From Candidatus Binataceae bacterium (GTDB lineage: Bacteria; Desulfobacterota; Binatia; Binatales; Binataceae), in contig DASPOF010000027.1 in the NCBI GenBank assembly GCA_035626155.1, forward strand, positions 10,685 through 74,684: DNA of 64,000 bases, read 5' to 3'. The notes beneath the pieces are model-generated. The model saw only the letters and a list, made by a program, of their open reading frames with translations. It ran no database searches and was not told where the DNA came from. A program made the translations under genes and the position numbers. Shown here piece by piece: positions 1-17,711 of the stretch. Numbering within the stretch: the first letter of the stretch is position 1; each line of letters begins with the position of its first letter.

Positions 1-72
1 GCTGAATATGCTCCCGCACGGCTGCGCGGCGCGGTTCGATCTCTCGTTGACTGCCGGTTTGCGCCCGAGCGG

Positions 73-1272
73 CTAATCGCGCGCAGCCGCCAGCGCCTCG
101 CGAATCATCGCGATTGCGAACTCGACCTCGTCGCGCGCGATCACCAGCGGCGGCGCCAGCCGCACCACCGCTCCGGCGTTGAGCGTCCAGTTGATTACGA
201 CCCCGCGCGCAAGCGCCTGTTTAACGAAGCGGTGCGCGAAATCCTCATCGCGAAACTCGATCCCGATGAGCAGGCCCAGCCCGCGCACCTCGGCGATTTC
301 CGGTGCGGGCAGTTCAGCCAGGCGCGCGCGAAGCTCGCCTCCCAAAGCGGCCGCGCGCTCGTGGAGCCGCTCCCCGGCGATCACCTCGAGCGCGGCAAGC
401 CCGGCCGCGCAAGCAAGCGGATTGCCGCCGAAGGTCGTGATGTGGCCCAGCGGCGGATCGCTCGCGAGCACCGCGAGCACCTCGTCGCGCGCAGCGAAAG
501 CGCCCAGCGGCAGGCCGCCGCCGAGCGCCTTGGCCATCACGACCACGTCGGGCACGATCCCGAAGTGTTCCAGCGCAAACATCCGTCCGGTCCGTCCGAG
601 CCCCGTCAGCACCTCATCGAAGACGAGCAGCGCCCCGGCGCGATCGCATCGCTCGCGCATCGCGCGCATGTACGTGGCGGTGGGAATTTTCACTCCGCCT
701 TCCGCCTGCACGGGCTCGATGACGGCCGCGGCGATCGATGAGTCGATCGCGTCGAGCGCGGCGGAGTCGCCGTAGGGGAGATGGCGCACGGGTCCCGGCA
801 GCGGCTCGAACGGCGCGCGAAACGCCGGGTTTCCGGCCAGCGCGAGCGCGCCCATCGTGTCGCCATGATAGGCGCCGTCGAAAGCGACGAAGCCTGCGCG
901 CCGCGTGTACTTGCGCGCCGCCTTGAGCGCGCCCTCGATCGCCTCGGCCCCGCTGTTCGTGAAATAGACGCGCGAGAGCGGCGCGGGAAGAAGCTCGGCC
1001 AGCCGGCGCGCGAGCCGCACCTGCGCCTCGATCACATACTCGCCGTAGACCATCACGTGCAGATGGCGCCGCGCCTGGCGCTCGATCGCGGCGATGACCG
1101 CCCGATGGCCGTGGCCCAGGGCCGATACGCCGATCCCGGCGATGAGATCGAGATAGCGCCGGCCATCGGCCGCGTAGAGCCACGAGCCGTCCCCGCGAAC
1201 GATTTCCAGCCCGATCGGGGCATCCGAGGTCTGCGCGAGGTGACGGCGGAAAAGCTCGCCCAGATCGCTCAT
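73..1272 (-). CDS. Class-III PLP-dependent aminotransferase (acetylornithine/omega-transaminase family)
   Basis: Full-length class-III aminotransferase fold (GxS...DEV..G.GRTG, K in MAKALGGG). ATG at 1272 is preceded by GGTGGAG. The start overlaps the stop of the upstream luxC-like gene by 4 nt (ATGA). Confidence 0.85.
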   Translation of the reverse strand: MSDLGELFRRHLAQTSDAPIGLEIVRGDGSWLYAADGRRYLDLIAGIGVSALGHGHRAVIAAIERQARRHLHVMVYGEYVIEAQVRLARRLAELLPAPLSRVYFTNSGAEAIEGALKAARKYTRRAGFVAFDGAYHGDTMGALALAGNPAFRAPFEPLPGPVRHLPYGDSAALDAIDSSIAAAVIEPVQAEGGVKIPTATYMRAMRERCDRAGALLVFDEVLTGLGRTGRMFALEHFGIVPDVVVMAKALGGGLPLGAFAARDEVLAVLASDPPLGHITTFGGNPLACAAGLAALEVIAGERLHERAAALGGELRARLAELPAPEIAEVRGLGLLIGIEFRDEDFAHRFVKQALARGVVINWTLNAGAVVRLAPPLVIARDEVEFAIAMIREALAAARD

Positions 1273-2471
1273 CGATGCTCCACCATCAGATCGAGGAAGG
1301 CGCCGCCGCCGTGGCGCCACTCAAGCGGCGGCGATTGCATCTGGCCGGGCGCACAAATCCACGATGCGCCGCATTCGGCGACAATCCGTTGCGCGGCGCA
1401 GGCTTGCGCGCCGCTGGCCGCAATCGCGAAGGCCTCCAACTGCCCCCGCACCGGCTCAAGCCTCGACGCAAGCTCATCGAGACTGGCGATTGAACTTAAG
1501 TACACGGTGCGAAATCCCCCCGATGCGCAAAGGCCCGCGCGCGAATCCAAGATTACCGTCCAGGAAAGATGCGCGCCTTCCCACAGCTCGACCGGATCGC
1601 CCGCGATCCCGCGCCATCGCGCCGCCTCGCGCGCAGCGCGAATCGCGGCCCCGTCGCCGGGCGCAAGCCGTACCGGCGGCGGCATCACGACGGCCGACTG
1701 CCCGAGCGCATCCGCAAGCCGAGCGGCGAAGCCGCGCGCGTCGCCGCCGAGGACGAACACGTGATGCGGCGAGAGGCATCCGAGCTGCTCGAACAGGGCG
1801 ATATCGCGAGCGAGCGCCTGCACCACCTGGTCGATCTCGGCGGCTCCCAGAGCGCTCGGCACGACCAGCGCACCGCTCAGCTTCGAGCCGAAGCCGATCA
1901 ATCGGCCGCCCGCGCCGAGACGCGCGATCGTCGCGTCATCGCCATAGGCCACGATCAGGTCGCATCCGCGACGGAGCACCGCGGCGAGTTCGCCATCGGC
2001 GCGGCTCCAGTTGAATACCGCAATGTGCTCGCCCATGTCCGGCGCGATTTCCGACAGCGCGCCCGTGAACGCGGAAAAGAAGTGAGGCTCGGCGCTCGCG
2101 GTCTTGATGACCACTCCGGCGCCGGTCATAAGCGCCGCGACGATCTCGTGCAGGCCCGCGCCCGCGACATTGCCCGCCATGACGAAGCCGATCGTCTCGC
2201 GGCGCGCCGCCACGCGGCGGGCGAACGCATCGAGCGCGCCGGCGCTGAACGGGGCGAGCAGCGCATCGAGCGACTGCTCGAGCAAAGCGCGCGAAAACCC
2301 CGAGTCGGCTGCGATTCGCGCGATGGTTTCGCATCTGGCCACATAGTCGCGGCCACGCCAGAGTTCGCAGGCGCGTGCGAGCGCGGATGCGGCGCGCGAG
2401 CGAGCCAGCGGACGGGCGGTGGCGCGCCGAAGCGCCGCGATGCGGTCGCGAAGCTCGATCGCAGTCGTCAT
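1269..2471 (-). CDS. luxC: LuxC-type acyl-CoA/acyl-protein reductase (ALDH superfamily)
   Basis: About 400 aa with an ALDH-like catalytic Cys context (FEQLGCLSP). Immediately downstream of a LuxE homolog, which is the classic luxCE pairing. ATG at 2471 (MTTAIELRD); the longer ORF to 2537 would overlap luxE. Confidence 0.65.
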   Translation of the reverse strand: MTTAIELRDRIAALRRATARPLARSRAASALARACELWRGRDYVARCETIARIAADSGFSRALLEQSLDALLAPFSAGALDAFARRVAARRETIGFVMAGNVAGAGLHEIVAALMTGAGVVIKTASAEPHFFSAFTGALSEIAPDMGEHIAVFNWSRADGELAAVLRRGCDLIVAYGDDATIARLGAGGRLIGFGSKLSGALVVPSALGAAEIDQVVQALARDIALFEQLGCLSPHHVFVLGGDARGFAARLADALGQSAVVMPPPVRLAPGDGAAIRAAREAARWRGIAGDPVELWEGAHLSWTVILDSRAGLCASGGFRTVYLSSIASLDELASRLEPVRGQLEAFAIAASGAQACAAQRIVAECGASWICAPGQMQSPPLEWRHGGGAFLDLMVEHR

Positions 2472-2475
2472 CGAT

Positions 2476-3612
2476 TCAGCCGGCATCCTCGACTCGGGCC
2501 TGTGCCCGGAACTGATCGATCCCAAGTGCGCATCCACGAGCCTGCGCCAAGCCTGCGCGGCCCATCAGCCGTATTCGATCGCCCTCGACAACGCCCAGGT
2601 CCTCGCTCAGCACTGCCGACACCGAGTTCACGTTCGCGAGATCGAAGAAGGCGAGCATCCCGGTCGCGCCCTCGGGCACGCCCTTGAGCGTGGCCGGATC
2701 GACCGCCCGCACGCGAAGCCACGGCGGCGCGATCTTGACGCGCGCGCCCGGCTTCGCGCCGCCGTCCGAGTTGAATCCGGTCGCGTCGTACATCTGCGAG
2801 CACAGCTCCGTCATCCCGTATTCATTAATGACGAAGTCCGCGGCGATCCCCAGCCGCGCCTCTGCAAGCTCGGCGACCGAGGCCGCATCGAGCGGCTCGG
2901 CCTGTCCCTTCGCACCGCCCGTGTCCATCAATCGCGAACCGGGCGCCAGTCGGATCGTCACGCGCTGCTCCGCTATCGTCGCGGCCAGCAGCGCGAAGGC
3001 TGCGGTCGTACCGAGGATGCACACCGGTGCGCGGTCGATCTGAGCGCGCGCGAGGAACTCGATCGCGCGGCTGCAATCGATACCGCGGCGGTCCGCAACG
3101 CATATCGATGGCGTCGTGCCGAACTCATCGATACACCAGCCGAGCATCGCCGCGAGGGACGACTCCGGCATCGCGGCGCCCGTCGGATGAAGGGCGAGCA
3201 CGCGCAGCTTGAGCCCATCGGGAAAGAGCATGCGCCTGAGATGAGCGAGTGCGGATCCACGGTAGATTTCCGGATCGGCGACCACGTGACGCCCGCGCCG
3301 CTCGGCTCCGACCGTGGTGCCGCTGGTGAGAAAGATGCGCGCGTGGGGATTTCCGGCGCCGTCCGCCGGCGCAAGCATCGCGTACTTGAATGCGACCGTG
3401 CTGACCAGCGGTACATCGTCCACCGAGCCGACGGCGGCCGGGTTGATCCCAAGCGCCCGGCAGTGCTCACGGTAAGCGGCAACGGTTTCGAACTGATAGC
3501 GGAAGACCTCCAGCGCCAGCGATTCGAAGCCCGCGCGGTCGGGCCTGTGGATAAACGATAAGACTCTCGATTGAATCGTCATGGCAGAATCGGAGGTAGC
3601 GGGCTTAGGCAC
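2476..3612 (-). CDS. luxE: LuxE-type acyl-protein synthetase (fatty acid AMP-activating)
   Basis: TSGTT motif and a C-terminal RGCALG acyl-Cys region are collinear with Vibrio LuxE, and the N-terminal length matches. The start is GTG at 3612, or alternatively ATG at 3582. Confidence 0.7.
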   Translation of the reverse strand: MPKPATSDSAMTIQSRVLSFIHRPDRAGFESLALEVFRYQFETVAAYREHCRALGINPAAVGSVDDVPLVSTVAFKYAMLAPADGAGNPHARIFLTSGTTVGAERRGRHVVADPEIYRGSALAHLRRMLFPDGLKLRVLALHPTGAAMPESSLAAMLGWCIDEFGTTPSICVADRRGIDCSRAIEFLARAQIDRAPVCILGTTAAFALLAATIAEQRVTIRLAPGSRLMDTGGAKGQAEPLDAASVAELAEARLGIAADFVINEYGMTELCSQMYDATGFNSDGGAKPGARVKIAPPWLRVRAVDPATLKGVPEGATGMLAFFDLANVNSVSAVLSEDLGVVEGDRIRLMGRAGLAQARGCALGIDQFRAQARVEDAG

Positions 3613-3743
3613 GATAGTCTCACTGCCGGGCAGGCAGCTTCAATCGGGCCTTTGGCAGGCGTAAGCTTAGATTTGATTTTTGCAGCGCTGGCATATTTCT
3701 GCTAAAGAAGAAGACCTTAGGCAAGTCGGAGGGGCTTCGCCAG

Positions 3744-4160
3744 ATGAAAAAGTTTATTGGGGGCGTGGTGCTGGGGTTCATCGCCAGTTGGGCCATTGCG
3801 TTTGCCGCACCGTCGGCAAGCCACGATGGGCTCTTCTGGAACGGGCTCAACGCCTCGGCCAAAGATGGCTACGTGAACGGATATTCGGACGCGATGAAGG
3901 TGAGCGTCGGCAAGCTCGACAGCATGACGATCGCGGCCGATATGTTTCACTGGAAGGGCGCGCGCAAGATCATCCATCAGCTCACGCGGGATCTATCGAT
4001 GGCGAACTTGACGCCCGGTGAAGTGGTGAAACGGCTCGACGGCCTATACTCGAATCAAAAGTACAGCGAACTCGATCTTGGCCAGGCCCTTCAATATCTG
4101 ACGCTGCGTGTGGGCGAGACGGCCGTGCCGCAGGTCGCAGCGCCGCCAGCCGCGAAGTAG
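3744..4160 (+). CDS. Small secreted hypothetical protein (signal peptide)
   Basis: Strong RBS GGAGGGG before the ATG and an N-terminal signal peptide (VVLGFIASWAIAFAAPSAS). Followed by an intrinsic terminator. Confidence 0.5.
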   Translation: MKKFIGGVVLGFIASWAIAFAAPSASHDGLFWNGLNASAKDGYVNGYSDAMKVSVGKLDSMTIAADMFHWKGARKIIHQLTRDLSMANLTPGEVVKRLDGLYSNQKYSELDLGQALQYLTLRVGETAVPQVAAPPAAK

Positions 4161-4182
4161 GCTCCATCGACGAAAGCAAAAA

Positions 4183-4211
4183 GGCGGTCCGGAATCGGGC
4201 CGCCTTTTTTT
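4183..4211 (+). terminator. Rho-independent terminator
   Basis: GC stem ggcggtccg-gaat-cgggccgcc followed by TTTTTTT. Confidence 0.55.
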
Positions 4212-4296
4212 ATCCACCGAACCGATCCCGATTGTTGCGTTTCCTGGCTTGAAACCTGCGCGGGGCGGCTTTAGGTTAGGTCGCGGGGATCGATTC

Positions 4297-5205
4297 GTGA
4301 ACGCTCCCGTATTTTTCCTGGAGAAGGCTCTGCGCGCGACGGTCGGGGTCCACTCGCATGTGCCGGAGACGCACGTCTCCAACGCGATTGGGCTCGGCAC
4401 CGATCGCCGCGGCACGGGGACCATCGTCAGTCCCGACGGGCTCATCCTCACGGTCCATTACCTTCTGCTCGGCGCCACCAACGTGATCGTGACGCTGCCA
4501 GGCGGCGATCAGCTCGACGCGAAAATCGTCGGCAAGGACTACAGCACGGGACTCGGCCTGCTCAAGATCGAGGGGAACAACTATCCGCATCTGAAGGTGG
4601 TCTCATCGGCAAGCTGCGCGCTCGGCCAGGAGACGTTCACGGTGGCGAGCCTCGGCGGCGACAAGCGATGCGCGGATACGGGATTGATCACCTACCTCGG
4701 TCCCTTCGACGCGTTCTTCGAGTTCGTGCTCGACCGCTGCGTATGCACCACCGCATCCTCGCTGAGCGTCGGGCTGAGCGGCGGCCCGGTGCTCAACCAG
4801 AACGCCCAGGTGATCGCGGTCTCGTATCTGAATTTTGCGGACATGGCCCGCGCGATTCTGGGCGTACCGGGCGAATACTTCCTGCAAGCGCGCGATGAAA
4901 TCATCCGGCACGGCCGGCGCGTATCGGCGGCCGCGCGCGCATGGCTGGGAGTGCTCTCCTACACGCTGCGCGAACACGTGGTGATCGCGGGCTTGATGCC
5001 CGGCGGACCGGGCGAGAAAGCGGGGCTCAAGCAGGGCGACCTGGTGCTCGCGGTGGACGGCAATGACATCAACGAGCGGCGGCTGATGTACGATGCGCTG
5101 CGCGATCGGCGGCCGGGCGAGAATATCGTGCTCAAGGTGCTGCGCAACAACAAGGTTTATCAGATCGAGATCCCGGCGATTCGCGCCGAGGATTACTTCG
5201 CCTGA
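4297..5205 (+). CDS. Trypsin-like serine protease with C-terminal PDZ (HtrA/DegP S1C family)
   Basis: His in TVHYLL and Ser in GLSGGPV, with a PDZ-like C-terminus (GLMPGGPGEKAGLKQGDLVLAVDG). GTG at 4297 has a GGGGA RBS; the longer ORF from 4108 has no signal and an Arg-rich junk N-terminus. Confidence 0.7.
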   Translation: MNAPVFFLEKALRATVGVHSHVPETHVSNAIGLGTDRRGTGTIVSPDGLILTVHYLLLGATNVIVTLPGGDQLDAKIVGKDYSTGLGLLKIEGNNYPHLKVVSSASCALGQETFTVASLGGDKRCADTGLITYLGPFDAFFEFVLDRCVCTTASSLSVGLSGGPVLNQNAQVIAVSYLNFADMARAILGVPGEYFLQARDEIIRHGRRVSAAARAWLGVLSYTLREHVVIAGLMPGGPGEKAGLKQGDLVLAVDGNDINERRLMYDALRDRRPGENIVLKVLRNNKVYQIEIPAIRAEDYFA

Positions 5206-5259
5206 ACAACCAGTCAGCGCTTCCCGCGCTTGGACCGTCGCTCTGAACTGACCAGCCTG

Positions 5260-8007
5260 CTACACGTCCTTGAACTCGCGCTTGGCTTTGCGCGACTCGA
5301 TCGCAGCCTGAGCCGCGGCCAGCCGCGCGACCGGAATCCGGTACGGCGAGCACGAGACATAATCGAGGCCGAGCCGATGGCAGGTCTTTACGCTCTGGGG
5401 ATCGCCGCCGTGCTCTCCGCAGATTCCGATCTTGAGCTTGCGGTTCGACTTGCGGCCGCGCTCTATTGCGATCCTCATCAGGTCGGCCACGCCAGAGGCG
5501 TCGAGTTCCTGGAACGGGTCCTTCTTGTAGATCTCGCGGCGGAGGTAGTCGCCGAGGAACTTGGCCGAGTCATCGCGCGAAAGCCCGTAGGTCATCTGCG
5601 TCAGGTCGTTGGTGCCGAAGGAAAAGAACTCGGCGGCCGCGCCGATCTCGTTGGCCAGGATGCACGCGCGCGGCACCTCGATCATAGTCCCGATCGTGAA
5701 CGGGACTTTCATTTTGCGCTCGGCGAAAACTTCGCTCGCGACTTGCCGGATGTCGGCGGCGAGGACCTCGAATTCTTTTCGGTCTCCGATCAGCGGCAGC
5801 ATGATCTCGGGCATCGCCTTGACCTTGCGGGCGCGAAGCTCGCACGCGGCCTCGAGGATCGCGCGCGCCTGCGCCTTGTAAATCTCGGGATAGCTGATCC
5901 CCAGGCGCGAGCCGCGATGGCCGAGCATCGGATTGAACTCGAACAGACTGTCGCGCACCTGTTTGAGATGCTCGGGTGAGACGCCGATCTTGGGCGCGAG
6001 ATCGTTAATCTCGTCGTCCTCCTTGGGCAGGAACTCGTGGAGCGGCGGGTCGAGCAGGCGGATCGTGACCGGCAGCCCCGCCATGTTCTCCAGTATCCCG
6101 ACGAAATCCTCGCGCTGCATCGGAAGGATCTTGGCGAGCGCGCGGGCGCGCTGTTTGGCGTTCTCCGCCATGATCATCTCGCGCACCGCGTCGATCCGCT
6201 CGGCCTGGAAGAACATGTGCTCGGTGCGGCACAACCCGATTCCCTCCGCGCCGAACTCGCGCGCGACGTGCGCGTCGTTGGGCGTGTCGGCGTTGGCGCG
6301 CACGCCGAGCCGGCGCTCGCGGTCGGCCCACGACAGGAACTTCCTGAAGTACGCGGGCATCGCCGGCTGCACGGTCGGCACGCGCCCCAGGATGACTTCG
6401 CCCGAGGAACCATCGAGCGTGATGTACTCGCCGCGGCGCACGACTGCGCCGTTGGCCGAGAGCGAGCCGGCGGCGTAATCGATTTCGAGCGCGGAACATC
6501 CGGCGACGCAGCACTTGCCCATCCCGCGCGCGACCACCGCCGCGTGGCTCGTCATCCCGCCGCGCGCGGTCAGAATCCCCTCGGCGACCTGCATCCCGTG
6601 TATGTCCTCGGGCGAGGTCTCGATTCGCACCAGGATCACCGGGCGGCCCGCCCCGCTGACTGCGACCGCCTCTTCCGCCGAGAATGCGACCTCGCCGAAC
6701 ACTGCGCCGGGTGATGCCGGCAGTCCGCGCGCGAGCACCTCCTTCTTGCTGGCCGGGTCGAGGCGCGGATGGAGGAACTGTTCGAGCTGCTCGGGCTCGA
6801 CGCGGGTGAGGGCGGTGGGGCGATCGATCAGGCGCTCATCGGCCATATCGACCGCGATGCGGACCGCGGCCTCGGCAGTGCGCTTGCCGGTGCGGGTCTG
6901 GAGCATGTACAGGCGGCGGCGCTCGATCGTGAACTCCATGTCCTGGCAATCGCGGAAGTGGTGTTCCAGGCGCGAGGAGATCGAAAGCAGTTCCTTATAG
7001 ACCTCGGGGAAACTCTCCTCGAGCGTGGGATACTTGTCGCGGCGCTCTTCCTCGGAAATCGAGCTGCGAGCGGCCCACTTGCGGCCGGCGGCGAGGCTTA
7101 TCTGGCGCGGCGTGCGGATTCCCGCGACCACGTCCTCACCCTGCGCGTTGGGAAGGAACTCGCCATAGATTCCCTTTTCGCCGGTGGCGGGGTCGCGAGT
7201 GAACGAGACGCCGGTTGCGCAATCCGCGCCGAGGTTGCCGAAGACCATCGATTGAACCGTGACCGCGGTGCCCCAGTCATCGGGGATCTTGTTGATCCGG
7301 CGATAGGTAATCGCGCGATCGTTGTCCCACGAGCCGAACACTGCGCCGATAGCCCCCCAGAGCTGCTCGCGCGGCTCCTGCGGGAGATCGCGCCCGGTGC
7401 GCCGGCGGATCAGGTCGCGAAACTCGCCGACCAGCTCCCGCAGATCGTCGGCATTAAGCTCGGTATCCTGGGTGACGCCGCGCGCGGCCTTCTTCTTGTC
7501 GATCAGCTCCTCGAACGGGTCGGGATCGTTCTTGTTCTCCGGCTTGAGCTTGAGAACGACATCGCCGTACATCTGGCAGAAGCGCCGGTAGGAGTCCCAC
7601 GCGAAACGCGGATTGCGGCTGACCTCCTCGAGTCCCTTGACCGACTCGTCGGTGAGACCGAGATTCAGCACCGTGTCCATCATCCCGGGCATCGAGACGC
7701 GCGCGCCCGAGCGCACCGATACCAGCAGCGGATTCGACGGGTCGCCGAACTTGCGCCCGAGCGCCTTCTCGACCCGCGCGAGGCTCTTCTCTACGCCGGC
7801 TTCGAGTCCTTTCGGATACTTGTGATCGTGCTGATAAAAGTAGGTGCAGACCCGGGTCGAGATCGTGAAGCCGGGAGGGACCGGCAGCTTGAGCGATGCC
7901 ATCTCGGCCAGGTTTGCGCCCTTTCCGCCGAGTAGATCGCGCATCGCGGAGCGGCCCTCGGCCACGCCCGCGCCAAAGAAATAGATTTCAGGATGAACTC
8001 GCGTCAT
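5260..8007 (-). CDS. ppdK: Pyruvate, phosphate dikinase
   Basis: Collinear with PPDK throughout (LLGGKGANLAEM, GMMDTVLNLGL, catalytic TSHAAVVARGMG, C-terminal PEP-utilising domain). ATG at 8007 with a GGGAGACGGGG RBS. Confidence 0.95.
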   Translation of the reverse strand: MTRVHPEIYFFGAGVAEGRSAMRDLLGGKGANLAEMASLKLPVPPGFTISTRVCTYFYQHDHKYPKGLEAGVEKSLARVEKALGRKFGDPSNPLLVSVRSGARVSMPGMMDTVLNLGLTDESVKGLEEVSRNPRFAWDSYRRFCQMYGDVVLKLKPENKNDPDPFEELIDKKKAARGVTQDTELNADDLRELVGEFRDLIRRRTGRDLPQEPREQLWGAIGAVFGSWDNDRAITYRRINKIPDDWGTAVTVQSMVFGNLGADCATGVSFTRDPATGEKGIYGEFLPNAQGEDVVAGIRTPRQISLAAGRKWAARSSISEEERRDKYPTLEESFPEVYKELLSISSRLEHHFRDCQDMEFTIERRRLYMLQTRTGKRTAEAAVRIAVDMADERLIDRPTALTRVEPEQLEQFLHPRLDPASKKEVLARGLPASPGAVFGEVAFSAEEAVAVSGAGRPVILVRIETSPEDIHGMQVAEGILTARGGMTSHAAVVARGMGKCCVAGCSALEIDYAAGSLSANGAVVRRGEYITLDGSSGEVILGRVPTVQPAMPAYFRKFLSWADRERRLGVRANADTPNDAHVAREFGAEGIGLCRTEHMFFQAERIDAVREMIMAENAKQRARALAKILPMQREDFVGILENMAGLPVTIRLLDPPLHEFLPKEDDEINDLAPKIGVSPEHLKQVRDSLFEFNPMLGHRGSRLGISYPEIYKAQARAILEAACELRARKVKAMPEIMLPLIGDRKEFEVLAADIRQVASEVFAERKMKVPFTIGTMIEVPRACILANEIGAAAEFFSFGTNDLTQMTYGLSRDDSAKFLGDYLRREIYKKDPFQELDASGVADLMRIAIERGRKSNRKLKIGICGEHGGDPQSVKTCHRLGLDYVSCSPYRIPVARLAAAQAAIESRKAKREFKDV

Positions 8008-9481: not shown

Positions 9482-10027
9482 TCAGCCCGTGCTGCCGAGC
9501 CTGATTATCTCGGCCGAAACCTGCCCGCCGGATGCGACTTCGAGGATCGCAACCGTGCCCGGCACTCCGGACAGATTGTGCGGCAGCGTGGCGCTGCCGG
9601 GATTCACGACCAAAGTCGGCCCGATGCGCGCGATGCCCTCGACGTGGCTGTGCCCCTGCACGATCACGTCCACCGGTCCGCCGAAGTGCGACCGCATCGC
9701 ATCCTCGAATGCCGCGTGCGAAGTCTCCTCCGGCATCGGAATCGCGTGGATAAGCCCGATGCGCACGCCCTCGACTTCGACCAGGTGCGCCTCTCGCACG
9801 CGGGAGTCGGGCTCAAGCTGGAAGCGGTGGCCGTCCAGGCCCTCATCGCCGTTGCCGAGCGCCGCGATTACCGGCGCGATTTTCGCGAGTTCATCGAGCA
9901 CGCGATTCACGTACACGTCGCCCGCGTGCATCACCAGGTCGATGCCGCGGAAGGCGTCAAAGACCTCGGCGGGCAGATGTTCGCAGGCCTCGGGGATGTG
10001 AGTATCAGAGATGAGCCCGATACGCAT
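9482..10027 (-). CDS. Metallophosphoesterase, YfcE/MJ0936 family
   Basis: Motifs MRIGLISDTH, GDV, GNGD and GHSH. ATG at 10027. Confidence 0.8.
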   Translation of the reverse strand: MRIGLISDTHIPEACEHLPAEVFDAFRGIDLVMHAGDVYVNRVLDELAKIAPVIAALGNGDEGLDGHRFQLEPDSRVREAHLVEVEGVRIGLIHAIPMPEETSHAAFEDAMRSHFGGPVDVIVQGHSHVEGIARIGPTLVVNPGSATLPHNLSGVPGTVAILEVASGGQVSAEIIRLGSTG

Positions 10028-10155
10028 GGTGGATTGCTCTGCGTCAGGGCCATCGGCCCGCCGCAATCGGTAAAAGCTACCATGCGCCCCTGCGTGCGGC
10101 AATTTTAAGCTTTTGGCGGCGGGGAGCGGGTTTCGTTTGGCGTCGGTTGGATGGG

Positions 10156-10207
10156 CGGTATTCTGAGCCCTCTCCCCATGGCCGGGAGAGGGTTTGGGAG
10201 AGGGACC
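10156..10207. repeat. GGGAGAGGG inverted-repeat element, copy A (cggtattctgagccctctcccc...gggagagggtttgggagagggacc)
   Basis: About 52 bp with internal CCCTCTCCC/GGGAGAGGG hairpin. Near-identical to the copy at 49128-49179 and reverse-complementary to the copy at 10581-10635. Confidence 0.8.
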
Positions 10208-10548
10208 TACAGCTGCCGGAGAATCTCCTCGAGCACCCCCTCGATGTTGGTCAGCACCTCGCTATCCCAAAATCTCAGCACCCGGTAGCCACTCGCAGCC
10301 AGCACCGCTGAACGCCTCTGGTCAGCTCCTTGCTGAGCCGGTTCCGCGTGTTGCCCTCCGTCCAGTTCCACAATCAACTGGCGCTCGACGCAGCAGAAAT
10401 CGGCCACGTAAGGCCCGATCGGGTATTGGCGGCGAAATTTGACTCCCAGCCGGCCGGCGCGAAGCTGCATCCATAGCCTGAGCTCCGTCTCCGTTTGCTC
10501 GCGCCGCAGGTGCCGAGCCAGATCTCGCATCAATGGCGGCTTCGACAT
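10207..10548 (-). CDS. DUF559 (Vsr-like endonuclease domain) protein
   Basis: 113 aa from the ATG at 10548 (MSKPPLMRDLARHLRREQTETELRLW...RQYPIGPYVADFCCVERQLIVELDGGQH...GYRVLRFWDSEV), which is the characteristic DUF559 pattern. Flanked by inverted copies of the repeat element. Confidence 0.65.
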   Translation of the reverse strand: MSKPPLMRDLARHLRREQTETELRLWMQLRAGRLGVKFRRQYPIGPYVADFCCVERQLIVELDGGQHAEPAQQGADQRRSAVLAASGYRVLRFWDSEVLTNIEGVLEEILRQL

Positions 10549-10580
10549 GAATGCCCGGCTGTGCAGCGTATTACCTACAA

Positions 10581-10635
10581 GGTCCCTCACCCAAACCCTC
10601 TCCCATTGATCACAGGGAGAGGGCTCAGATTGTTC
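10581..10635. repeat. GGGAGAGGG inverted-repeat element, copy B (opposite orientation to copy A)
   Basis: Its reverse complement (gaacaatctgagccctctccc...gggagagggtttgggtgagggacc) matches copy A apart from the spacer. Confidence 0.8.
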
Positions 10636-10733
10636 TCGAGCGGCGCACCCGATTTCGCATCGAGTTGGTGAGCCTCCATAGGCAGGCCACTCAAAACCGC
10701 CCACTACGCTTTTGGCGGCGGGGAGTGCGCAAC

Positions 10734-11381
10734 CTACTGGGAGCCGGCGGACGGGCGCGATTCCTTCGCTGCGCCATCGCTCGCAACCTGGCGTATTTCC
10801 GCGGTGAGCTCGGAGGCGAACTCGGCCATCACCTGGTTGAACGACATGCTGATCGCCTCGGCGGCCTGCTCGGGCGTGTCGCCGCCGGCGGGCGACTCCT
10901 TGCTAATCACCTTGCACCACAGCGCGCGCGAGAACGGATCGCGCGGGAAGATGCAGAACCGGATCGCGACCACGCCCGTGTGCTGAGCGCCGTCGTCGAC
11001 CTCCTGGAACGCCTTGATGCGCGTATCGAGGAGCAGCGGATGGGCGGCCGCCGTCTCCGGACCGACGGGCGACGGGCTATAGATGATTTCGTGGAGCCGC
11101 TCGGAGACGAGATCGGTCGGCGGCTCGACCCATCGATGGAATTTGTAGGTGTCGAGCCGGTAGGGCGAAGTCTGGTAGGCGATCCCCGTGTCCTGGAAGG
11201 GCTCGGAGCCTGTCACGTTGCGAAGCTCGATCCTGGCGGTGGGCGGAATCTCTGCAACCGCGGTCGTGGGGGCGAGCTGGTATCGATGCGTCGCCGGAAC
11301 GCTTCGCGCGAGCAGGCTGCATCCCGCGAAGCTCGCCGCCAGCGTCAGCGCAATCGGGGTGGCCGCGCGCTCGCGCATCAT
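10734..11381 (-). CDS. ABC-transport auxiliary lipoprotein (DUF330/PqiC-like) of the Mla/MCE operon
   Basis: Lipoprotein signal with lipobox (LTLAASFAGC). Start ATGATG(A) overlaps the stop of the upstream MCE gene. Confidence 0.6.
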   Translation of the reverse strand: MMRERAATPIALTLAASFAGCSLLARSVPATHRYQLAPTTAVAEIPPTARIELRNVTGSEPFQDTGIAYQTSPYRLDTYKFHRWVEPPTDLVSERLHEIIYSPSPVGPETAAAHPLLLDTRIKAFQEVDDGAQHTGVVAIRFCIFPRDPFSRALWCKVISKESPAGGDTPEQAAEAISMSFNQVMAEFASELTAEIRQVASDGAAKESRPSAGSQ

Positions 11382-12316
11382 TGATTCACCTCTCGGGTCG
11401 ATACCTTGCTTCCCCAAATCACCACGGAGGGGTCGGCCTGGATCGTCTGGAGGGTCTCATCGAGATGGCGTGAGGCGTGGCCGATTTCGAGCAGGGTGCG
11501 ATCGATGTCCTGGTAGTTGCGGCTCATGAGCCCGTTGGTGGTTTCGAGCAAGGTCTGCGCAGAATCCATCGCGCTGCCCGCGCGCACCAGCACGGTGTTC
11601 AGGTTGTTCATCGTCTCACCGGAACGCTTCGAGAACACCTCGGTGGCGACCGCCGCATGATCGGCGGCGCGGTTGAGCCGCCCGGCCGCCTCGCTCAGGT
11701 TTGCCAGCGTCGTGTTGATCGATTCGAGCCGGTGGGCCTCGGCGAGGTCGGCGGTGATCGTGCGAAGATTCCTGGTCGTCGCGTCGAGGTTCTGGATCAC
11801 GTCACTGAGCGCGGCGCGGTTCTGCTTGTTGAGCGTATCCTCGTTGAGCCCGGAGACAAGCTGGTAGGTCTGGTTGCTCACTTCCAAAGCCTGGCGGCGG
11901 AAATCCTCGAAGGACGACTCAACCGCGGTAATCGCCTGCTCTTCTCCGAGTTCGCCCGACTGGCGCGAACCGCCGGTCAGCTCGATGAACTGGATTCCGG
12001 TAACGAGATTCCCCTCCAGGCGCGCCACCGTATCCCTGTACACCGGCGTCCCTGGCTTGACCTCCAGGTTCACCTCGACGCGCGGAGGGCTGTCACGGGT
12101 GAGATTGACGGCGATGACCTTGCCGACCTCCACCCCGTTCAGTTCGACCGACGCGCCCGGCAGCAGCCCGCTTACCGAGCGGGTGAAGACGATGCGGTAG
12201 CGGTCCACGGGACGCAGGAATCGCGAGCCTGCAAGCCAAAGAATCCCGATCAGGAGGACCACCGCGGTCCCCGTGACGAAGGCCCCGACCACGACTGTTC
12301 GTTCACGCCTCGCCAT
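11378..12316 (-). CDS. mlaD: MCE-domain protein (MlaD/PqiB-like)
   Basis: N-terminal TM followed by an Mce domain (VELNGVEVGKVIAVNL) and a long helical C-terminus. ATG at 12316. Confidence 0.8.
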   Translation of the reverse strand: MARRERTVVVGAFVTGTAVVLLIGILWLAGSRFLRPVDRYRIVFTRSVSGLLPGASVELNGVEVGKVIAVNLTRDSPPRVEVNLEVKPGTPVYRDTVARLEGNLVTGIQFIELTGGSRQSGELGEEQAITAVESSFEDFRRQALEVSNQTYQLVSGLNEDTLNKQNRAALSDVIQNLDATTRNLRTITADLAEAHRLESINTTLANLSEAAGRLNRAADHAAVATEVFSKRSGETMNNLNTVLVRAGSAMDSAQTLLETTNGLMSRNYQDIDRTLLEIGHASRHLDETLQTIQADPSVVIWGSKVSTREVNQ

Positions 12317-12473
12317 GTTTGATGCTCCAATCGTCAGGATTGCAGGCCGGAAGGTTCCCCTCGCCTGCGGGCCGCCGTCCGCGCCCGATTTAGCCTATCG
12401 CCCATCGTGAGCCTTTGTAAGCCGCCCGGTCCATCGCGTGTCGCCGGCAGACGAGCGGACGGTGCCCGTACCT

Positions 12474-13268
12474 TCATTCCCCCATCTGGTTGATAAGACC
12501 GACGATCGGGCGCGAATCGCCTTCGGGATCGCGCTTTGCCTCGCGAGCAAAGAACGCGTGCACCTGCGGATTGTCCATCGCTCGCAGCTTCGAAATCGTG
12601 CCCTCGGCGATTACTTTGCCCCGGTCGAGCATGAGGGCGCGATCGGCGATCGTCTCGATGCTGGCGAGCTCGTGAGTGACAACCACCATCGCGACACCGA
12701 GCCGTTGCTTGAGTCCGACGATGAGATCGTCGAGAGCGCGCGCGGTCACCGGGTCGAGCCCCGCCGACGGCTCATCGAAGAGCAGGACCTCGGGATCGAG
12801 CGCGAGCGCGCGGGCGAGCCCGGCGCGCTTTTTCATCCCGCCGCTAATCTCCGAGGGCAGCAGGGCGGCCGAGGTCTCCAGCCCCACCAGCGCAAGCTTC
12901 ATCCGCGCGATGATCGCGGCGATCTCGGGGGCAACATGGCGATGCTCGACCAGCGGGAACGCGATGTTCTCTTCGAGCGTGAGCGAGCTGAACAGCGCAC
13001 CGGACTGAAACAGCATCCCGACCCGCTTGAGCGTCTCGTCGCGTTCGTCGTTATCAAGCGCGTAGAGATCGCGCCCGAACATCAGGACGTGGCCCGCGTC
13101 GGGCGCGCGCAGGCCCACCAGCGTGCGCAACAGCGTGGTCTTGCCGCAGCCGCTCGCGCCGAGGATTACCAGGATTTCGCGCGGGCCAAGCCGCATGCTC
13201 ACGTCATCGAGGACCGTGTGATCGCCAAATCGAACGACCAGGTTTTCGGCGCGAATCAAATCCTCCAT
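12474..13268 (-). CDS. mlaF: ABC transporter ATP-binding protein, MlaF-like
   Basis: Walker A GASGCGKTT, signature LSGGMKKR, Walker B LLLFDEPSAGLD. Confidence 0.9.
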   Translation of the reverse strand: MEDLIRAENLVVRFGDHTVLDDVSMRLGPREILVILGASGCGKTTLLRTLVGLRAPDAGHVLMFGRDLYALDNDERDETLKRVGMLFQSGALFSSLTLEENIAFPLVEHRHVAPEIAAIIARMKLALVGLETSAALLPSEISGGMKKRAGLARALALDPEVLLFDEPSAGLDPVTARALDDLIVGLKQRLGVAMVVVTHELASIETIADRALMLDRGKVIAEGTISKLRAMDNPQVHAFFAREAKRDPEGDSRPIVGLINQMGE

Positions 13269-13272
13269 GGCA

Positions 13273-14457
13273 TCACCCGATCAGGTAGAAGAACAGTGTG
13301 AAGACCGCATCGGCGGCGATCGCCGCGATTATCGACGTGACCACCGCGCGGGTGGTCGCCGCGCCGACGCCCTCCGCGCCGCCCGCGACGTTCAGTCCCT
13401 CGTGGCACGAGATGAGCCCGATCAGCGATGCGAACACGACGCTCTTGATCAGCCCCGTCACGACGTCGTTGATGTAGAGCGTCTGTGCGGTCTGGCGCAG
13501 GTAGTTGTTCGAGCCAAGCCCCATTCCGGGCACGGCGATCAGATAGCCGCCAAGCATCCCGCAGACGTCGCTCATTACGGTCAGGCACGGCGCCATCACG
13601 ATCAGGGCGATCATCCGGGGCGCGACCAGGAAGCGGTTGGGCCCGAGCGCCATCGTCTTCATCGCGTCGATTTCCTCGGACACGACCATCGTGCCGAGCT
13701 CCGCGGCGATCGCGGAACCGGAGCGGCCCGCCACCAGCACCGCGGTCATCAGCGGGCCCATCTCGCGCGTCATCGTGACGCCGACCAGGTTTGCGATGTA
13801 AATCGACGCGCCGAACTGGCTCAGTTCGCGCGCACCGTTCAGCGCGAGCACCACGCCGACCAGGACCGAAATGAAGAGCACGAGCGGGATGCCGCCGATG
13901 CCGATCAGGTCCATTTGCTCGATGATCGAGCGCCACACCCAGCCCTTGCCGACGAACGGGTCCACAAAAATCGCGCTTGCGATGTCGGCGCTGCGCTGGC
14001 GCCACCCCTGCCAGTCTGCGGCGACCAGCAACGCGCGCTCGCCTACCAGCTCCAGGAGCGACTCCTCGGGCCGCCTCGCCTCTTCGTGCGAGAGCAGCGG
14101 ACGCAGCGATGCGTCCAGCGCCTGGCGGAGATTCTCGGGGAGACCCGTGATTTCGAGCTTGAGCTTGCGTTCGGAGGCATCGCCGGCCAGCCGCGCGAGC
14201 ACTGCGACGTCGGCCATCGAGAGCGTTCCGCATCCGCTCACATCGAGCCGGACGGCGCCATTGGGAGGAATTTTGAGCACGCGGTTGCGAAGCCGCGCAA
14301 AAGATTTCTCGTCAGTAGCGAGATCGTCGCGGCTCAAACGGATTGCCGCGGATCGGGTCGTGTCGGGAGGACGTTCGTTCACTTGCCGGTCTGCCGTGGC
14401 GCTCGCGCCGGACCGCCCCCTTGGCGCTCGATCGAGCGCAACGCTTGAAGCTATCAC
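13273..14457 (-). CDS. mlaE: MlaE-family ABC permease with an N-terminal STAS (MlaB-like) domain fused
   Basis: N-terminal about 110 aa STAS-like (RLSRDDLATDEKSFARLRNRVL...KLEITGLPENLRQAL), then the MlaE permease core (EIDAMKTMALGP..., multiple TM helices). Start codon uncertain; GTG at 14457. Confidence 0.75.
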   Translation of the reverse strand: MIASSVALDRAPRGRSGASATADRQVNERPPDTTRSAAIRLSRDDLATDEKSFARLRNRVLKIPPNGAVRLDVSGCGTLSMADVAVLARLAGDASERKLKLEITGLPENLRQALDASLRPLLSHEEARRPEESLLELVGERALLVAADWQGWRQRSADIASAIFVDPFVGKGWVWRSIIEQMDLIGIGGIPLVLFISVLVGVVLALNGARELSQFGASIYIANLVGVTMTREMGPLMTAVLVAGRSGSAIAAELGTMVVSEEIDAMKTMALGPNRFLVAPRMIALIVMAPCLTVMSDVCGMLGGYLIAVPGMGLGSNNYLRQTAQTLYINDVVTGLIKSVVFASLIGLISCHEGLNVAGGAEGVGAATTRAVVTSIIAAIAADAVFTLFFYLIG

Positions 14458-14658
14458 GCGCCGCGCCGGATCGGCAATTTTGCCACCCGGCGGCGAGCCG
14501 GGCTCGCGGCCCGGCCCGCATCGGATTGCGGCAGGGCGGCCGGCAATCCTGGGTGTTGAAAATTCACCATGGTCCCGTGCTAAAAGGCGAAGAAAGCGAA
14601 GTGCGGCGGACCGAACCTGATGCCGGGTCCGGCGCGCCGCATTCCGGCCGGAGGCATT

Positions 14659-14991
14659 ATGCGCGTTTGGACGACCATCCTATGCGGTATCGTGGTGGGC
14701 CTGGCGCTCGGGATCGCAGGATGCGGTCACAAGCTCGTCGCGACCGGCGCCCAGCACACCGTGAACGTCTATCCCGATGAAGACACCTACAAGAAGCTCG
14801 CGCAGATGAAGGATCAGGGAGGGGTCGCCGGGATGCTGAGCGGGCTTGGCGAAAATCTCGCGACCAGGAAGGTCGAGGACAAGACGCCGGTCAAAATCAT
14901 CTCCAGCGATGACCTCGGCTCGCAGGTCGAGGTGACCGGAGGGCCGTCGGCGGGCACCAAGGGCTTCGTCGCGAAGGAAAACGTCGATTAG
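14659..14991 (+). CDS. Small lipoprotein, hypothetical
   Basis: GGAGG RBS and a lipobox (LALGIAGC). Confidence 0.55.
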   Translation: MRVWTTILCGIVVGLALGIAGCGHKLVATGAQHTVNVYPDEDTYKKLAQMKDQGGVAGMLSGLGENLATRKVEDKTPVKIISSDDLGSQVEVTGGPSAGTKGFVAKENVD

Positions 14992-15057
14992 CGGGGAGCC
15001 TGCGCACTCGCGCGCAAGCTCCGGCGCATTTACCACCGAGCGCCGATTCCCCGCCCC

Positions 15058-16311
15058 TCACGGCGCGCCACGATAGGCGCGCGGTACCGTTCCGATTACC
15101 CCGGCCGCCTCGAGCTCGCCGATCTCGTCATCGCTCATGCTCAGCAGGCGCCGGAAGACCTCGGCGTTATGCTGGCCCAGGAGCGGCGCGGGACGATCGG
15201 CGCGCAGCGGCGATTGCGCAAGCCGCGCGACGGCGCCCGGGTAGAGATGCGTTCCCACCACCGCGCGTTCGATCGGAACGAAGTAGTCGCGGCCATGCAG
15301 TTGCGAATCCGCGAGTATCGCGGACGCCGAATTGACGTGGGCCGCGTACACTCCCGCCGCACTCAGTCTTGCTACCGCGTCATCGAGCGCGAGCGCGCCC
15401 AGCGCGCGCGCAAGTTCCGCGTCGAGCGCATCCTCGTTGGCCTTGCGCGACACGGCATCGGCGAAGCGCCCGTCGGTGGCGAGACGGTCCGGCCCTAGCG
15501 CGGCGGCGAGCGCGCGCCACTGCTCCTCGGTCTCGGCGGCAAGCGCGATCCAGTTCTGATCCTCGCCGGCGCACCGGTAGATTCCGTGCGGCGCGAACTC
15601 GGGATGGCGATTTCCGCGCGGCTGCGGGACCGCACCGGTCAGCTCGTACTCGATGATCTTCTCGCCGACCAGCGGGATGGCGGCTTCGACCTGCGCAAGC
15701 TCGATCCATTGCCCGCGCCCGGTGCGCTCGCGCTCGTGAAGCGCCGCGAGCACCGCGAGCATCCCGTTGAGTCCGCCGATCGGATCGCCAAGCGCATTGG
15801 AGAGCATGTAGCGCTGATCGGCGTCATGATAGGCGGTCAGCGCGGTCATCCCGGCCATGCCCTCGATCGTATTGCCGTATCCGCGCGCGTTGGATTCGGG
15901 ACCGTCGGACCCGAACGAGGGCATCGAGATCATCACCAGGCGCGGGTTGAGCGCGCCGAGCACGTCGCGCGTCAGCCCGAACCGCCGCATCACGCCCGGA
16001 GTGAAGTTCTCGATGAATACGTCGGAAATCGCCGCGAGCCGCTTCACCATCGCGATGCCGCGCGGATTGGTGAGATCGATCGTCACGCCGAGCTTGCCGC
16101 GGTTGGCGGTATTGAAGACCGCGGCGCGCTCGATCGGCTGCGATTGCGGCGGGCCCATCGAGAGCGACCCGCGCCACCAGTCGAAGTGATGCGTGTCCTC
16201 GACCTTCACCACCTCGGCGCCCATCTCGGCCAGCATCTCGCCGACGAGCGGTCCCGCCCATCCCATCGAGATATCCAGGACACGGATTTTGCCATCGAGC
16301 ACGGTCATCAT
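15058..16311 (-). CDS. Family III CoA-transferase (CaiB/BaiF/Frc family)
   Basis: Full-length family-III fold (VLDISMGWAGPLVGEMLAEMGAEVVKVE...). Start overlaps the upstream paralog stop (ATGA). Confidence 0.85.
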   Translation of the reverse strand: MMTVLDGKIRVLDISMGWAGPLVGEMLAEMGAEVVKVEDTHHFDWWRGSLSMGPPQSQPIERAAVFNTANRGKLGVTIDLTNPRGIAMVKRLAAISDVFIENFTPGVMRRFGLTRDVLGALNPRLVMISMPSFGSDGPESNARGYGNTIEGMAGMTALTAYHDADQRYMLSNALGDPIGGLNGMLAVLAALHERERTGRGQWIELAQVEAAIPLVGEKIIEYELTGAVPQPRGNRHPEFAPHGIYRCAGEDQNWIALAAETEEQWRALAAALGPDRLATDGRFADAVSRKANEDALDAELARALGALALDDAVARLSAAGVYAAHVNSASAILADSQLHGRDYFVPIERAVVGTHLYPGAVARLAQSPLRADRPAPLLGQHNAEVFRRLLSMSDDEIGELEAAGVIGTVPRAYRGAP

Positions 16312-17528: not shown

Positions 17529-17711
17529 CACCGGGCCCCCGTGGCGATGACAGCGCAGGGGACGGCGCAATGTCAAATGAATCGCGCGGGCTGGTGCGCG
17601 CCGGTCACGCGGGGGATGGAAAAGCGGCGGATGGAAAACGCGAACCGCTGAGATGATGCTGAGGCAGCGGCGGCAGCCTGCGCAGGGCGCGCAGGCTCTC
17701 GAATCGTCCTC

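Follow-up and report, generated by a model that had tools for sequence, protein, structure and literature searches.

In the Lux system of Photobacterium phosphoreum (PDB 7XC6), cryo-EM has identified Lys238, Arg355, and the acylated Cys364 in a C-terminal TRxxKGCxLS loop as the key residues of the acyl-protein synthetase LuxE, and Cys296 (Cys286 in older numbering) as the acyl-accepting residue of the reductase LuxC (PMC9157457). In the Streptomyces albus pathway to tambjamine BE-18591 (TabQ, TabJ, TabE, and TabA), the LuxC-cluster reductase TabE and the omega-transaminase TabA together yield dodecylamine in vitro (bioRxiv 10.1101/2025.08.11.669332). PigE (prodigiosin) and TamH (tambjamine YP1) likewise reduce a thioester and then transaminate the aldehyde with a class-III aminotransferase, and in ArgB-ArgC-ArgD and LysZ-LysY-LysJ (lysine via LysW) an activated carboxylate is reduced to a semialdehyde, which is then transaminated. 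Engineered cascades of a carboxylic acid reductase (CAR) and a transaminase follow the same acid-to-amine logic. Here, we describe a locus in a 64,000-nucleotide stretch of contig DASPOF010000027.1 (assembly GCA_035626155.1; hereafter, the window), in which three genes follow one another on the minus strand (3582..73): the first encodes a LuxE-like acyl-protein synthetase, the second a LuxC-like reductase, and the third a class-III aminotransferase (AT). The host is a member of Candidatus Binataceae, phylum Binatota, represented by a metagenome-assembled genome (MAG) from peat, and its named relatives point to the same placement. We consider it probable, if only just, that this triad is one operon for the conversion of a carboxylic acid to an aldehyde and then to a primary amine, likely of a medium- or long-chain fatty acid to a fatty amine.

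Open reading frames and Pfam scores agree on the three families. The LuxE-like protein scored 67 bits against PF04443 LuxE (cut-off 24.9; residues 19-357), the LuxC-like protein 142 bits against PF05893 LuxC (cut-off 21), and the AT 354 bits against PF00202 Aminotran_3 (cut-off 30.5). An earlier note, made from the letters of this DNA alone, had called the same three families on one strand, with an ATGA overlap between the LuxC-like and AT genes and a 4-nt gap between the LuxE-like and LuxC-like genes, and all of this can be read from the sequence: the LuxE-like gene ends in a TGA at 2478-2476, and the LuxC-like gene begins with the ATG at 2471. The span that it gave, 73 to 3612, ends at a GTG upstream of the LuxE-like ATG at 3582 and in frame with it. 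We favor the ATG because the predicted promoter (Table 1) would put the transcription start 3' of the GTG. In the public gene call the LuxC-like gene starts at an ATG at 2486, which makes a protein of 405 amino acids and an 11-nt overlap with the LuxE-like gene in place of the gap. A GGAG lies 5 nt 5' of the AT start codon.

Both Lux-like proteins retain the residues on which their Lux counterparts depend. The LuxE-like protein matched the LuxE chain of the solved complex (7xc6_E, E = 8e-16) and carries the adenylation motifs TSGTT (86-90) and YGMTE (255-259). Its K225 (TGGAKG), R342, and C351 (ARGCALG) correspond to Lys238, Arg355, and Cys364 of LuxE, R342 standing nine residues ahead of the Cys with the same spacing as in LuxE. 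None of the three varies across the 72 orthologues compared. A profile of LuxC-like orthologues matched P. phosphoreum LuxC (7xc6_A, E = 6e-21), in which the Cys of DQQACFS aligns with C232 (FEQLGCLS) of our protein, a residue invariant in 76 of 76 orthologues; the catalytic Cys whose loss the earlier note had named as fatal to its proposal is thus in place. In LuxC, L107, W111, and M114 belong to a hydrophobic product cleft (PMC9157457); the residues that align with them here are L64, L68, and L71. Like the Lux genes, those of the two proteins are adjacent. They differ from Lux in that the triad proteins are only about 20-25% identical to their Lux counterparts, that LuxC has 488 amino acids as against 400 here, that luxA, luxB, and luxD are missing, and that the aldehyde would pass to the AT, as we propose, and not to luciferase. 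Neither protein qualified as a true Lux enzyme: the LuxE-like protein scored 71 bits against the NCBIfam LuxE equivalog NF052244 (cut-off 550), the LuxC-like protein 49.5 bits against the LuxC equivalog NF052251 (cut-off 750), and no association with a lux operon was seen, neither luciferase nor luxD being present in the annotated flanks. The absence of both genes, which the earlier note had remarked on, holds for the annotated portions of the window as well as of its contig.

The AT resembles several well-studied aminotransferases and belongs clearly to none of them. Its best NCBIfam and PDB matches were acetylornithine and acetyl-lysine aminotransferases, together with the Escherichia coli putrescine aminotransferase; among solved structures it scored 307 bits against 1vef, 281 bits against PatA, and 272 bits against Mycobacterium tuberculosis ArgD. 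It nevertheless fell under every NCBIfam cut-off, including those for ArgD (398.5 against 457 for PRK03244; 380.5 against 410 for TIGR00707), LysJ (340 against 700), the gamma-aminobutyrate (GABA) aminotransferases GabT/PuuE (261 bits against 724), PatA/YgjG (325 bits against 612), and BioA, the diaminopelargonic acid synthase (269 bits against 405). PGAP annotates it with a generic name and the JGI pipelines with "acetylornithine/succinyldiaminopimelate aminotransferase". A tRNA-independent route to 5-aminolevulinate of the HemA/HemL kind was also considered and rejected, as HemL was not among the 25 NCBIfam matches listed out of 69 and there was no supporting context.

The catalytic set of the AT is invariant, with K248 (MAKALGGG) as the Schiff-base lysine and D219 to the pyridine nitrogen, as is the E191/R371 pair for the alpha-carboxylate of the amino-acid co-substrate. 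Its specificity residues are what set it apart from ArgD and GabT. Arg141 of AstC and Arg180 of ornithine aminotransferase (OAT) form a salt bridge with the substrate carboxylate (PMC4244111, PMC3590144). At that position the AT has D138 (GAYHGDT), and the residue is Asp in 88 of 88 sequences, where Thermus thermophilus LysJ, the ArgD proteins of M. tuberculosis and Campylobacter jejuni, and PuuE have Arg (FHGRT in PuuE for YHGDT in the AT) and PatA has Lys183. BioA presumably has YHGDT as well, and a literature search on its Asp147 gave no confirmation. I47 (Ile or Met in orthologues) occupies the Tyr position of acetylornithine aminotransferase (AcOAT) and OAT, which is Phe91 in PatA, and a Leu occupies the AcOAT Gly position, which is Phe327 in PatA; L222, L275, and L364 depart from AcOAT as I47 does. 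The Gln of DE(I/V)QTG that contacts O3' of the pyridoxal 5'-phosphate (PLP) cofactor is replaced by Leu (Leu or Ile in the family). A unique N-terminal motif, RH(V/L)(C/A)QTS..PLG, is conserved, and it lies at a substrate-contact site of OAT and AstC (PMC3590144).

PatA (PDB 4UOX), the second-best solved relative, offers a useful comparison: it too lacks an Arg at the carboxylate site, and it has Leu419 and a "TLN" stretch in common with the AT (PMC4244111). Both enzymes place a bulky hydrophobic residue at the AcOAT Gly position, a pattern for amines or aldehydes free of a carboxylate, while PatA differs in its Lys183 (Asp in the AT), its Phe91 (Ile/Met), and the retained Gln of its DEVQTG. 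Because its specificity residues differ from those of AcOAT, the AT probably acts on a substrate without a nearby carboxylate, which would enter by a hydrophobic, PatA-like opening. By cut-offs, specificity residues, and coupling to LuxC we classify the AT as neither an ArgD nor a GabT, the two identities that the earlier note had said would undo its proposal.

The AT is also the slowest-evolving member of the triad. Its identity is 73% within Binataceae (57% for LuxE and 49% for LuxC) and about 55% across class Binatia (39% and 33%, respectively). The closest plasmid-borne relative that we found, on plasmid pAT2 of Aureibacter tunicatorum (locus L176, 6974-8194), is 42% identical, has no LuxC, and sits after a GNAT acetyltransferase. 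It has the QTS..PLG and VMVYGE motifs in common with the AT but reads SYHGNT, with Asn for Asp, and DEIQTG; since this relative has SYHGNT, the wider AT clade also appears to be without the Arg.

Of the species-representative genomes scanned, 125 had a relative of the LuxC-like protein; 80 loci were kept, nearly all in Binataceae-type MAGs. The order LuxE-LuxC-AT on one strand was found wherever the contig permits, in essentially all of about 70 Binataceae species genomes, and the AT was the sole partner of LuxE-LuxC in the family. At the junction of LuxC and AT, the 4-nt overlap was present in 65 of 72 loci. In two Centralia MAGs, LuxE and LuxC are fused in frame (L055, 6825-9173, and L077, 6840-9197; 782 and 785 amino acids, respectively), and the library representatives contain further fusions, of 764 to 821 amino acids, one of them a distant Phycisphaerae protein; such fusions are consistent with a physical complex of the Lux type (7XC6). 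Because the flanks of the triad are syntenic within Binataceae too, gene order across the family is by itself weak evidence of a functional link. The MAG MFD05502.bin.1.2 holds two triad loci (L013 and L083), the second with a split LuxC and a weak-scoring AT; it is either a decaying duplicate or the product of long-read frameshift errors.

Comparison of orthologous upstream regions gave a sigma-70-like motif, GG-ATTGAA-N17/18-CAT(G/C)AT, which in 59 of 71 loci lies about 60 nt 5' of luxE and of which the predicted promoter in the window is an instance; a generic scan for promoters and terminators gave no signal over shuffled background. The NCBI MAG GCA_964454235.1 has an identical AT on an 82.7-kb contig, and two JGI peat metagenomes record it too, which shows that the locus is no assembly oddity. 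On the 82.7-kb contig an unrelated histidine kinase lies 140 bp past the AT and a small divergent gene precedes LuxE, and we therefore take the triad to be the whole unit.

Linkage of LuxC and AT extends beyond Binataceae. In an exhaustive search of representatives, orthologues scored above 250 bits and outgroups below 195 bits (31-41% identity). The outgroup LuxE-LuxC pairs and fusions examined (Capsulimonas, a Planctomycetes MAG, a Phycisphaerae MAG, and others) had no AT, and on the first four outgroup contexts we had taken the linkage to be confined to Binataceae, a view overturned by locus L091 and by metagenome loci. In L091, genes for an ABC ATPase, a NodJ-family ABC-2 permease, LuxE, LuxC, and AT all overlap and are followed by one for a PvdQ-like Ntn acylase; identity to the window is 33% for LuxC, 39% for LuxE, and 59% for the AT. 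The contig of this locus (3-6966) has a GC content of 71%, and its acylase is membrane-anchored. A metagenome scan seeded from the L091 clade gave 80 LuxC-like loci, 69 of which could be tested for the downstream gene, and an AT lay directly 3' of LuxC in 20 of the 69. The 14 complete ATs among them were 51-59% identical to that of the window, had the signature motifs in common with it, and carried [FY]HGDT in 14 of 14 cases; the named relatives of the LuxC-linked ATs are Candidatus Binatia. Thus, the linkage of LuxC and AT spans class Binatia amid differing flanks, and in this sampling the HGDT subfamily of ATs was found only beside LuxC. The co-occurrence in other genomes that the earlier note had suggested looking for is therefore found both in Binataceae and in distant Binatia.

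The flanking genes of these distant loci vary. In L123 (5980-10901) a long-chain-acyl-CoA synthetase stands in the place of LuxE, followed by LuxC-like, HGDT AT, and DUF4079 genes; the synthetase passes the NCBIfam equivalog for its function (680 against a cut-off of 625). A membrane protein of the DUF4079 family, of about 130 amino acids and resembling cytochrome b561, is encoded beside the AT in seven loci (L100, L110, L123, L142, L143, L146, and L151), a zinc-dependent alcohol dehydrogenase (410-440 amino acids) 3' of the AT in four Binatia loci outside Binataceae (L096, L100, L104, and L143), and an MFS transporter in one distant Binatia locus.

Pairs of LuxE and LuxC without luciferase are also found outside Binatia, as in Capsulimonas and on megaplasmids of Azospirillum and Pantoea, and the flagellin glycosylation islands of Aeromonas and Enterobacteriaceae hold such pairs too (PMC7874193, PMC4875605). 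They resemble the triad in having no luciferase, and they keep a C-terminal KGCSL motif. Their partners are short-chain dehydrogenase/reductase (SDR)/3-oxoacyl-ACP reductases, ABC transporters, acyl carrier protein (ACP), glycosyltransferases, or none, with no HGDT AT, and they have no demonstrated product. On a plasmid of Azospirillum lipoferum 4B (L174, 5457-11298), LuxE-like and LuxC-like genes precede an SDR/3-oxoacyl-ACP reductase gene, with an ABC transporter also present, and on a plasmid of Pantoea sp. SOD02 (L175, 5571-8963) the pair again precedes an SDR/3-oxoacyl-ACP reductase gene; the LuxE-like proteins of both are annotated as "long-chain fatty acid--CoA ligase" and end in KGCSL. 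These two may serve as tractable models of an AT-free version. When plasmids were searched for the full triad in a cultured host, only LuxE-LuxC-SDR and the unlinked AT at 42% identity came up.

From these observations a sequence of steps can be proposed. The LuxE-like enzyme would adenylate a free aliphatic acid with ATP and bind the resulting acyl group to its C-terminal Cys351 in thioester linkage. From there its flexible tail would deliver the acyl group to Cys232 in the LuxC-like enzyme, and this second enzyme would form the aldehyde at the expense of NAD(P)H. The coupled AT would then convert the aldehyde to a primary amine with an amino-acid donor, Glu or Ala, and the fatty amine might be used, modified, or exported. 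The opposite, catabolic direction, from amine to acid, was dropped, as adenylation of the LuxE type is not reversible in that way. A medium- or long-chain fatty acid is the most likely substrate, and a fatty amine the most likely product: Lux homology, the hydrophobic LuxC cleft, and the carboxylate-free AT site all favor a long aliphatic chain, as do the long-chain synthetase of L123 and the exporter, acylase, and membrane-protein genes nearby. The sequences themselves establish the families, the intact catalytic residues, the coupling, and the conservation across Binatia; the direction of flux, chain length, amino donor, and fate of the amine are inferred. The earlier note had arrived at the same path from fatty acid through aldehyde to amine, and families, residues, and linkage all lend it support as a prediction. 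We would extend it only tentatively, and think the extension somewhat more likely to fail than to hold, to a class-wide Binatota pathway in which LuxE/LuxC and a dedicated, hitherto unrecognized HGDT family of fatty-aldehyde ATs turn fatty acids into free long-chain primary amines that feed an amine-bearing membrane lipid or a secreted amphiphile.

Several observations weigh against the fatty-amine reading. We know of no free primary fatty amines among bacterial core metabolites. Since the LuxE-like and LuxC-like proteins score far under the equivalog cut-offs, the identity of the Lux substrate cannot simply be transferred to them, and the exchange of LuxE for an acyl-CoA synthetase was seen in L123 only. 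The invariant D138 is not explained by a plain alkyl chain and may indicate a cationic group on the substrate or another donor. Docking of AstC gives the Arg equivalent to the D138 site a further part, in holding 2-oxoglutarate by its distal carboxylate (PMC3590144), and the loss of that Arg in the AT therefore leaves the amino donor uncertain.

The same D138 is what gives the chief rival its force. In that alternative, the logic of activation, reduction, and transamination is kept, and the substrate is a polar or amino-bearing acid that would be turned into an amino-aldehyde and then into a diamine or polyamine precursor, with Asp138 binding the ammonium group. An Asp in every sequence where AcOAT, OAT, and GABA aminotransferase have Arg and PatA has Lys would suit such a substrate, as would the unique N-terminal motif at the OAT/AstC substrate-contact site and the YHGDT presumed for BioA, an enzyme that places its amino group beside an existing one; the best solved relatives of the AT use amino-acid-derived semialdehydes or diamines, and class-wide conservation with very slow evolution of the AT suggests a core metabolite. 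Against this, the cleft residues of the LuxC-like protein are still hydrophobic, the enzyme in LuxE's stead in L123 is a long-chain acyl-CoA synthetase, the lipid-type exporter and acylase neighbors suit an amphiphile better, and no polyamine or amino-acid pathway genes lie near the triad. On balance we regard a polar or cationic substrate as unlikely.

We think it less likely still that the aldehyde of LuxE-LuxC serves chiefly for an alcohol, a wax, an ether lipid, or a signal, with the AT as a side branch or detoxifying sink. Most pairs outside Binatia do without an AT, the SDR/3-oxoacyl-ACP reductase follows the pair in Azospirillum and Pantoea, and a zinc-dependent alcohol dehydrogenase lies 3' of the AT in the four Binatia loci, all of which would fit such a role. 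It is hard to reconcile with an AT that is the sole partner in Binataceae, joined to LuxC by the 4-nt overlap, and the most conserved of the three proteins, and with a subfamily found in this sampling only beside LuxC, whose nearest unlinked relative, in Aureibacter, is distant and has Asn. Finally, the AT could be a housekeeping enzyme of the ArgD, GabT, or OAT type that lies next to an unrelated LuxE-LuxC pair by chance, as its best database matches, the JGI name, and the general conservation of flanking synteny in Binataceae might suggest. This we consider very improbable: the AT misses all the equivalog cut-offs and has only a generic PGAP name, the Arg to Asp, Tyr to Ile/Met, Gly to Leu, and PLP-O3' Gln to Leu/Ile replacements remove the residues that would be expected of such an enzyme, the linkage to LuxC persists in loci with wholly different flanks, and no arg genes were seen in the flanks of the triad.

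Set against the amine pathways already described, the fatty-amine reading has clear precedents: the logic, which the earlier note had called unusual for a non-luminous anaerobe, is also that of the Tab pathway, PigE/TamH, and the CAR and transaminase cascades. Judged by gene type, the architecture of the triad matches that of pathways that join a thioester reductase and an omega-transaminase. In the Tab pathway, as proposed here, a fatty aldehyde comes from a thioester reductase of the LuxC cluster and is converted by a class-III omega-transaminase to a primary fatty amine, a likeness at the level of gene type. Tab relies on an ACP and an editing thioesterase, lacks LuxE, and belongs to a secondary-metabolite cluster, whereas the triad has LuxE-type activation and stands alone, as an operon of three genes whose conservation spans a bacterial class; no ACP, thioesterase, polyketide synthase (PKS), or nonribosomal peptide synthetase (NRPS) gene was found in its flanks. 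The AT domain of PigE is a clear relative of our AT (310 bits against NCBIfam, under the cut-off of 850; 226 bits against PDB 4ppm), but the reductase of PigE and TamH is of another family, is fused to the AT, and uses carrier- or CoA-bound intermediates. ArgD and LysJ are the best overall matches of the AT, and their pathways differ in using phosphorylation and a GapDH-type reductase, and in ATs that have the substrate-carboxylate Arg and the AcOAT specificity residues missing here. A literature search returned no account of LuxC/LuxE with an aminotransferase in Binatota. What is new is a carrier-free, stand-alone operon, conserved across an uncultured class, in which a dedicated subfamily of HGDT ATs is partnered with a LuxE/LuxC-type reductase.

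Table 1. Features of the LuxE-LuxC-aminotransferase locus (positions in the window)
Feature	Position	Strand	Remarks
Predicted sigma-70-like operon promoter (ATTGAAG, 18-nt spacer, GACTAT)	3614..3644	minus	consensus match; ~30-62 nt 5' of LuxE ATG
LuxE-like acyl-protein synthetase (adenylating enzyme)	3582..2476	minus	368 aa from ATG
LuxC-like acyl-thioester reductase	2471..1269	minus	400 aa
ATGA stop/start overlap, LuxC-like / AT	1269-1272	minus	read from sequence
Class-III PLP aminotransferase, "HGDT" subfamily	1272..73	minus	399 aa

We also recorded what lies around the triad. An Rfam scan of positions 1-6000 (E <= 1) found no riboswitch or RNA leader, and just a sub-threshold CsrC fragment elsewhere. 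In locus L001 (11340-18376), the genes past the triad encode a HisKA sensor kinase without an adjacent response regulator, then an AIRS-family protein, two CNNM/CBS/CorC proteins, an AIRC protein that at 258 amino acids is close to LarB in size, and an ABC1/UbiB kinase, and the gene set from HisKA to ABC1/UbiB is syntenic in most Binataceae. Within the window, positions 9500-17600 hold Mla-type lipid-transport genes (ABC_trans_aux, MlaD at 11378-12316, and STAS-MlaE at 13273-14457), and after these come two adjoining family-III CoA-transferases (15058-17576). Positions 26000-64000 are rich in respiratory genes, among them several multihaem c-type cytochromes, NrfD-type membrane subunits, 4Fe-4S proteins, a molybdopterin oxidoreductase, and b-type cytochrome subunits, along with a sigma-54 two-component pair and a large sulfatase. 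The earlier note had called the host an anaerobe, a label that nothing in our analysis supports.

If the proposed pathway is correct, non-luminous LuxE/LuxC homologues would be aldehyde generators whose product is set by the partner, be it luciferase, an SDR, or an AT, and the HGDT ATs would be a new subfamily for carboxylate-free aldehydes. The triad would then also be a compact, carrier-free, three-gene route to fatty amines of interest to those who engineer CAR and omega-transaminase cascades; the operon is small enough for direct synthesis and testing. Should the class-wide reading hold as well, it would be the first pathway from fatty acids to free long-chain amines outside a secondary-metabolite cluster. 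For the Binatota themselves, it would mean that an as yet unknown amine metabolite is conserved across an abundant uncultured phylum of soil and peat.

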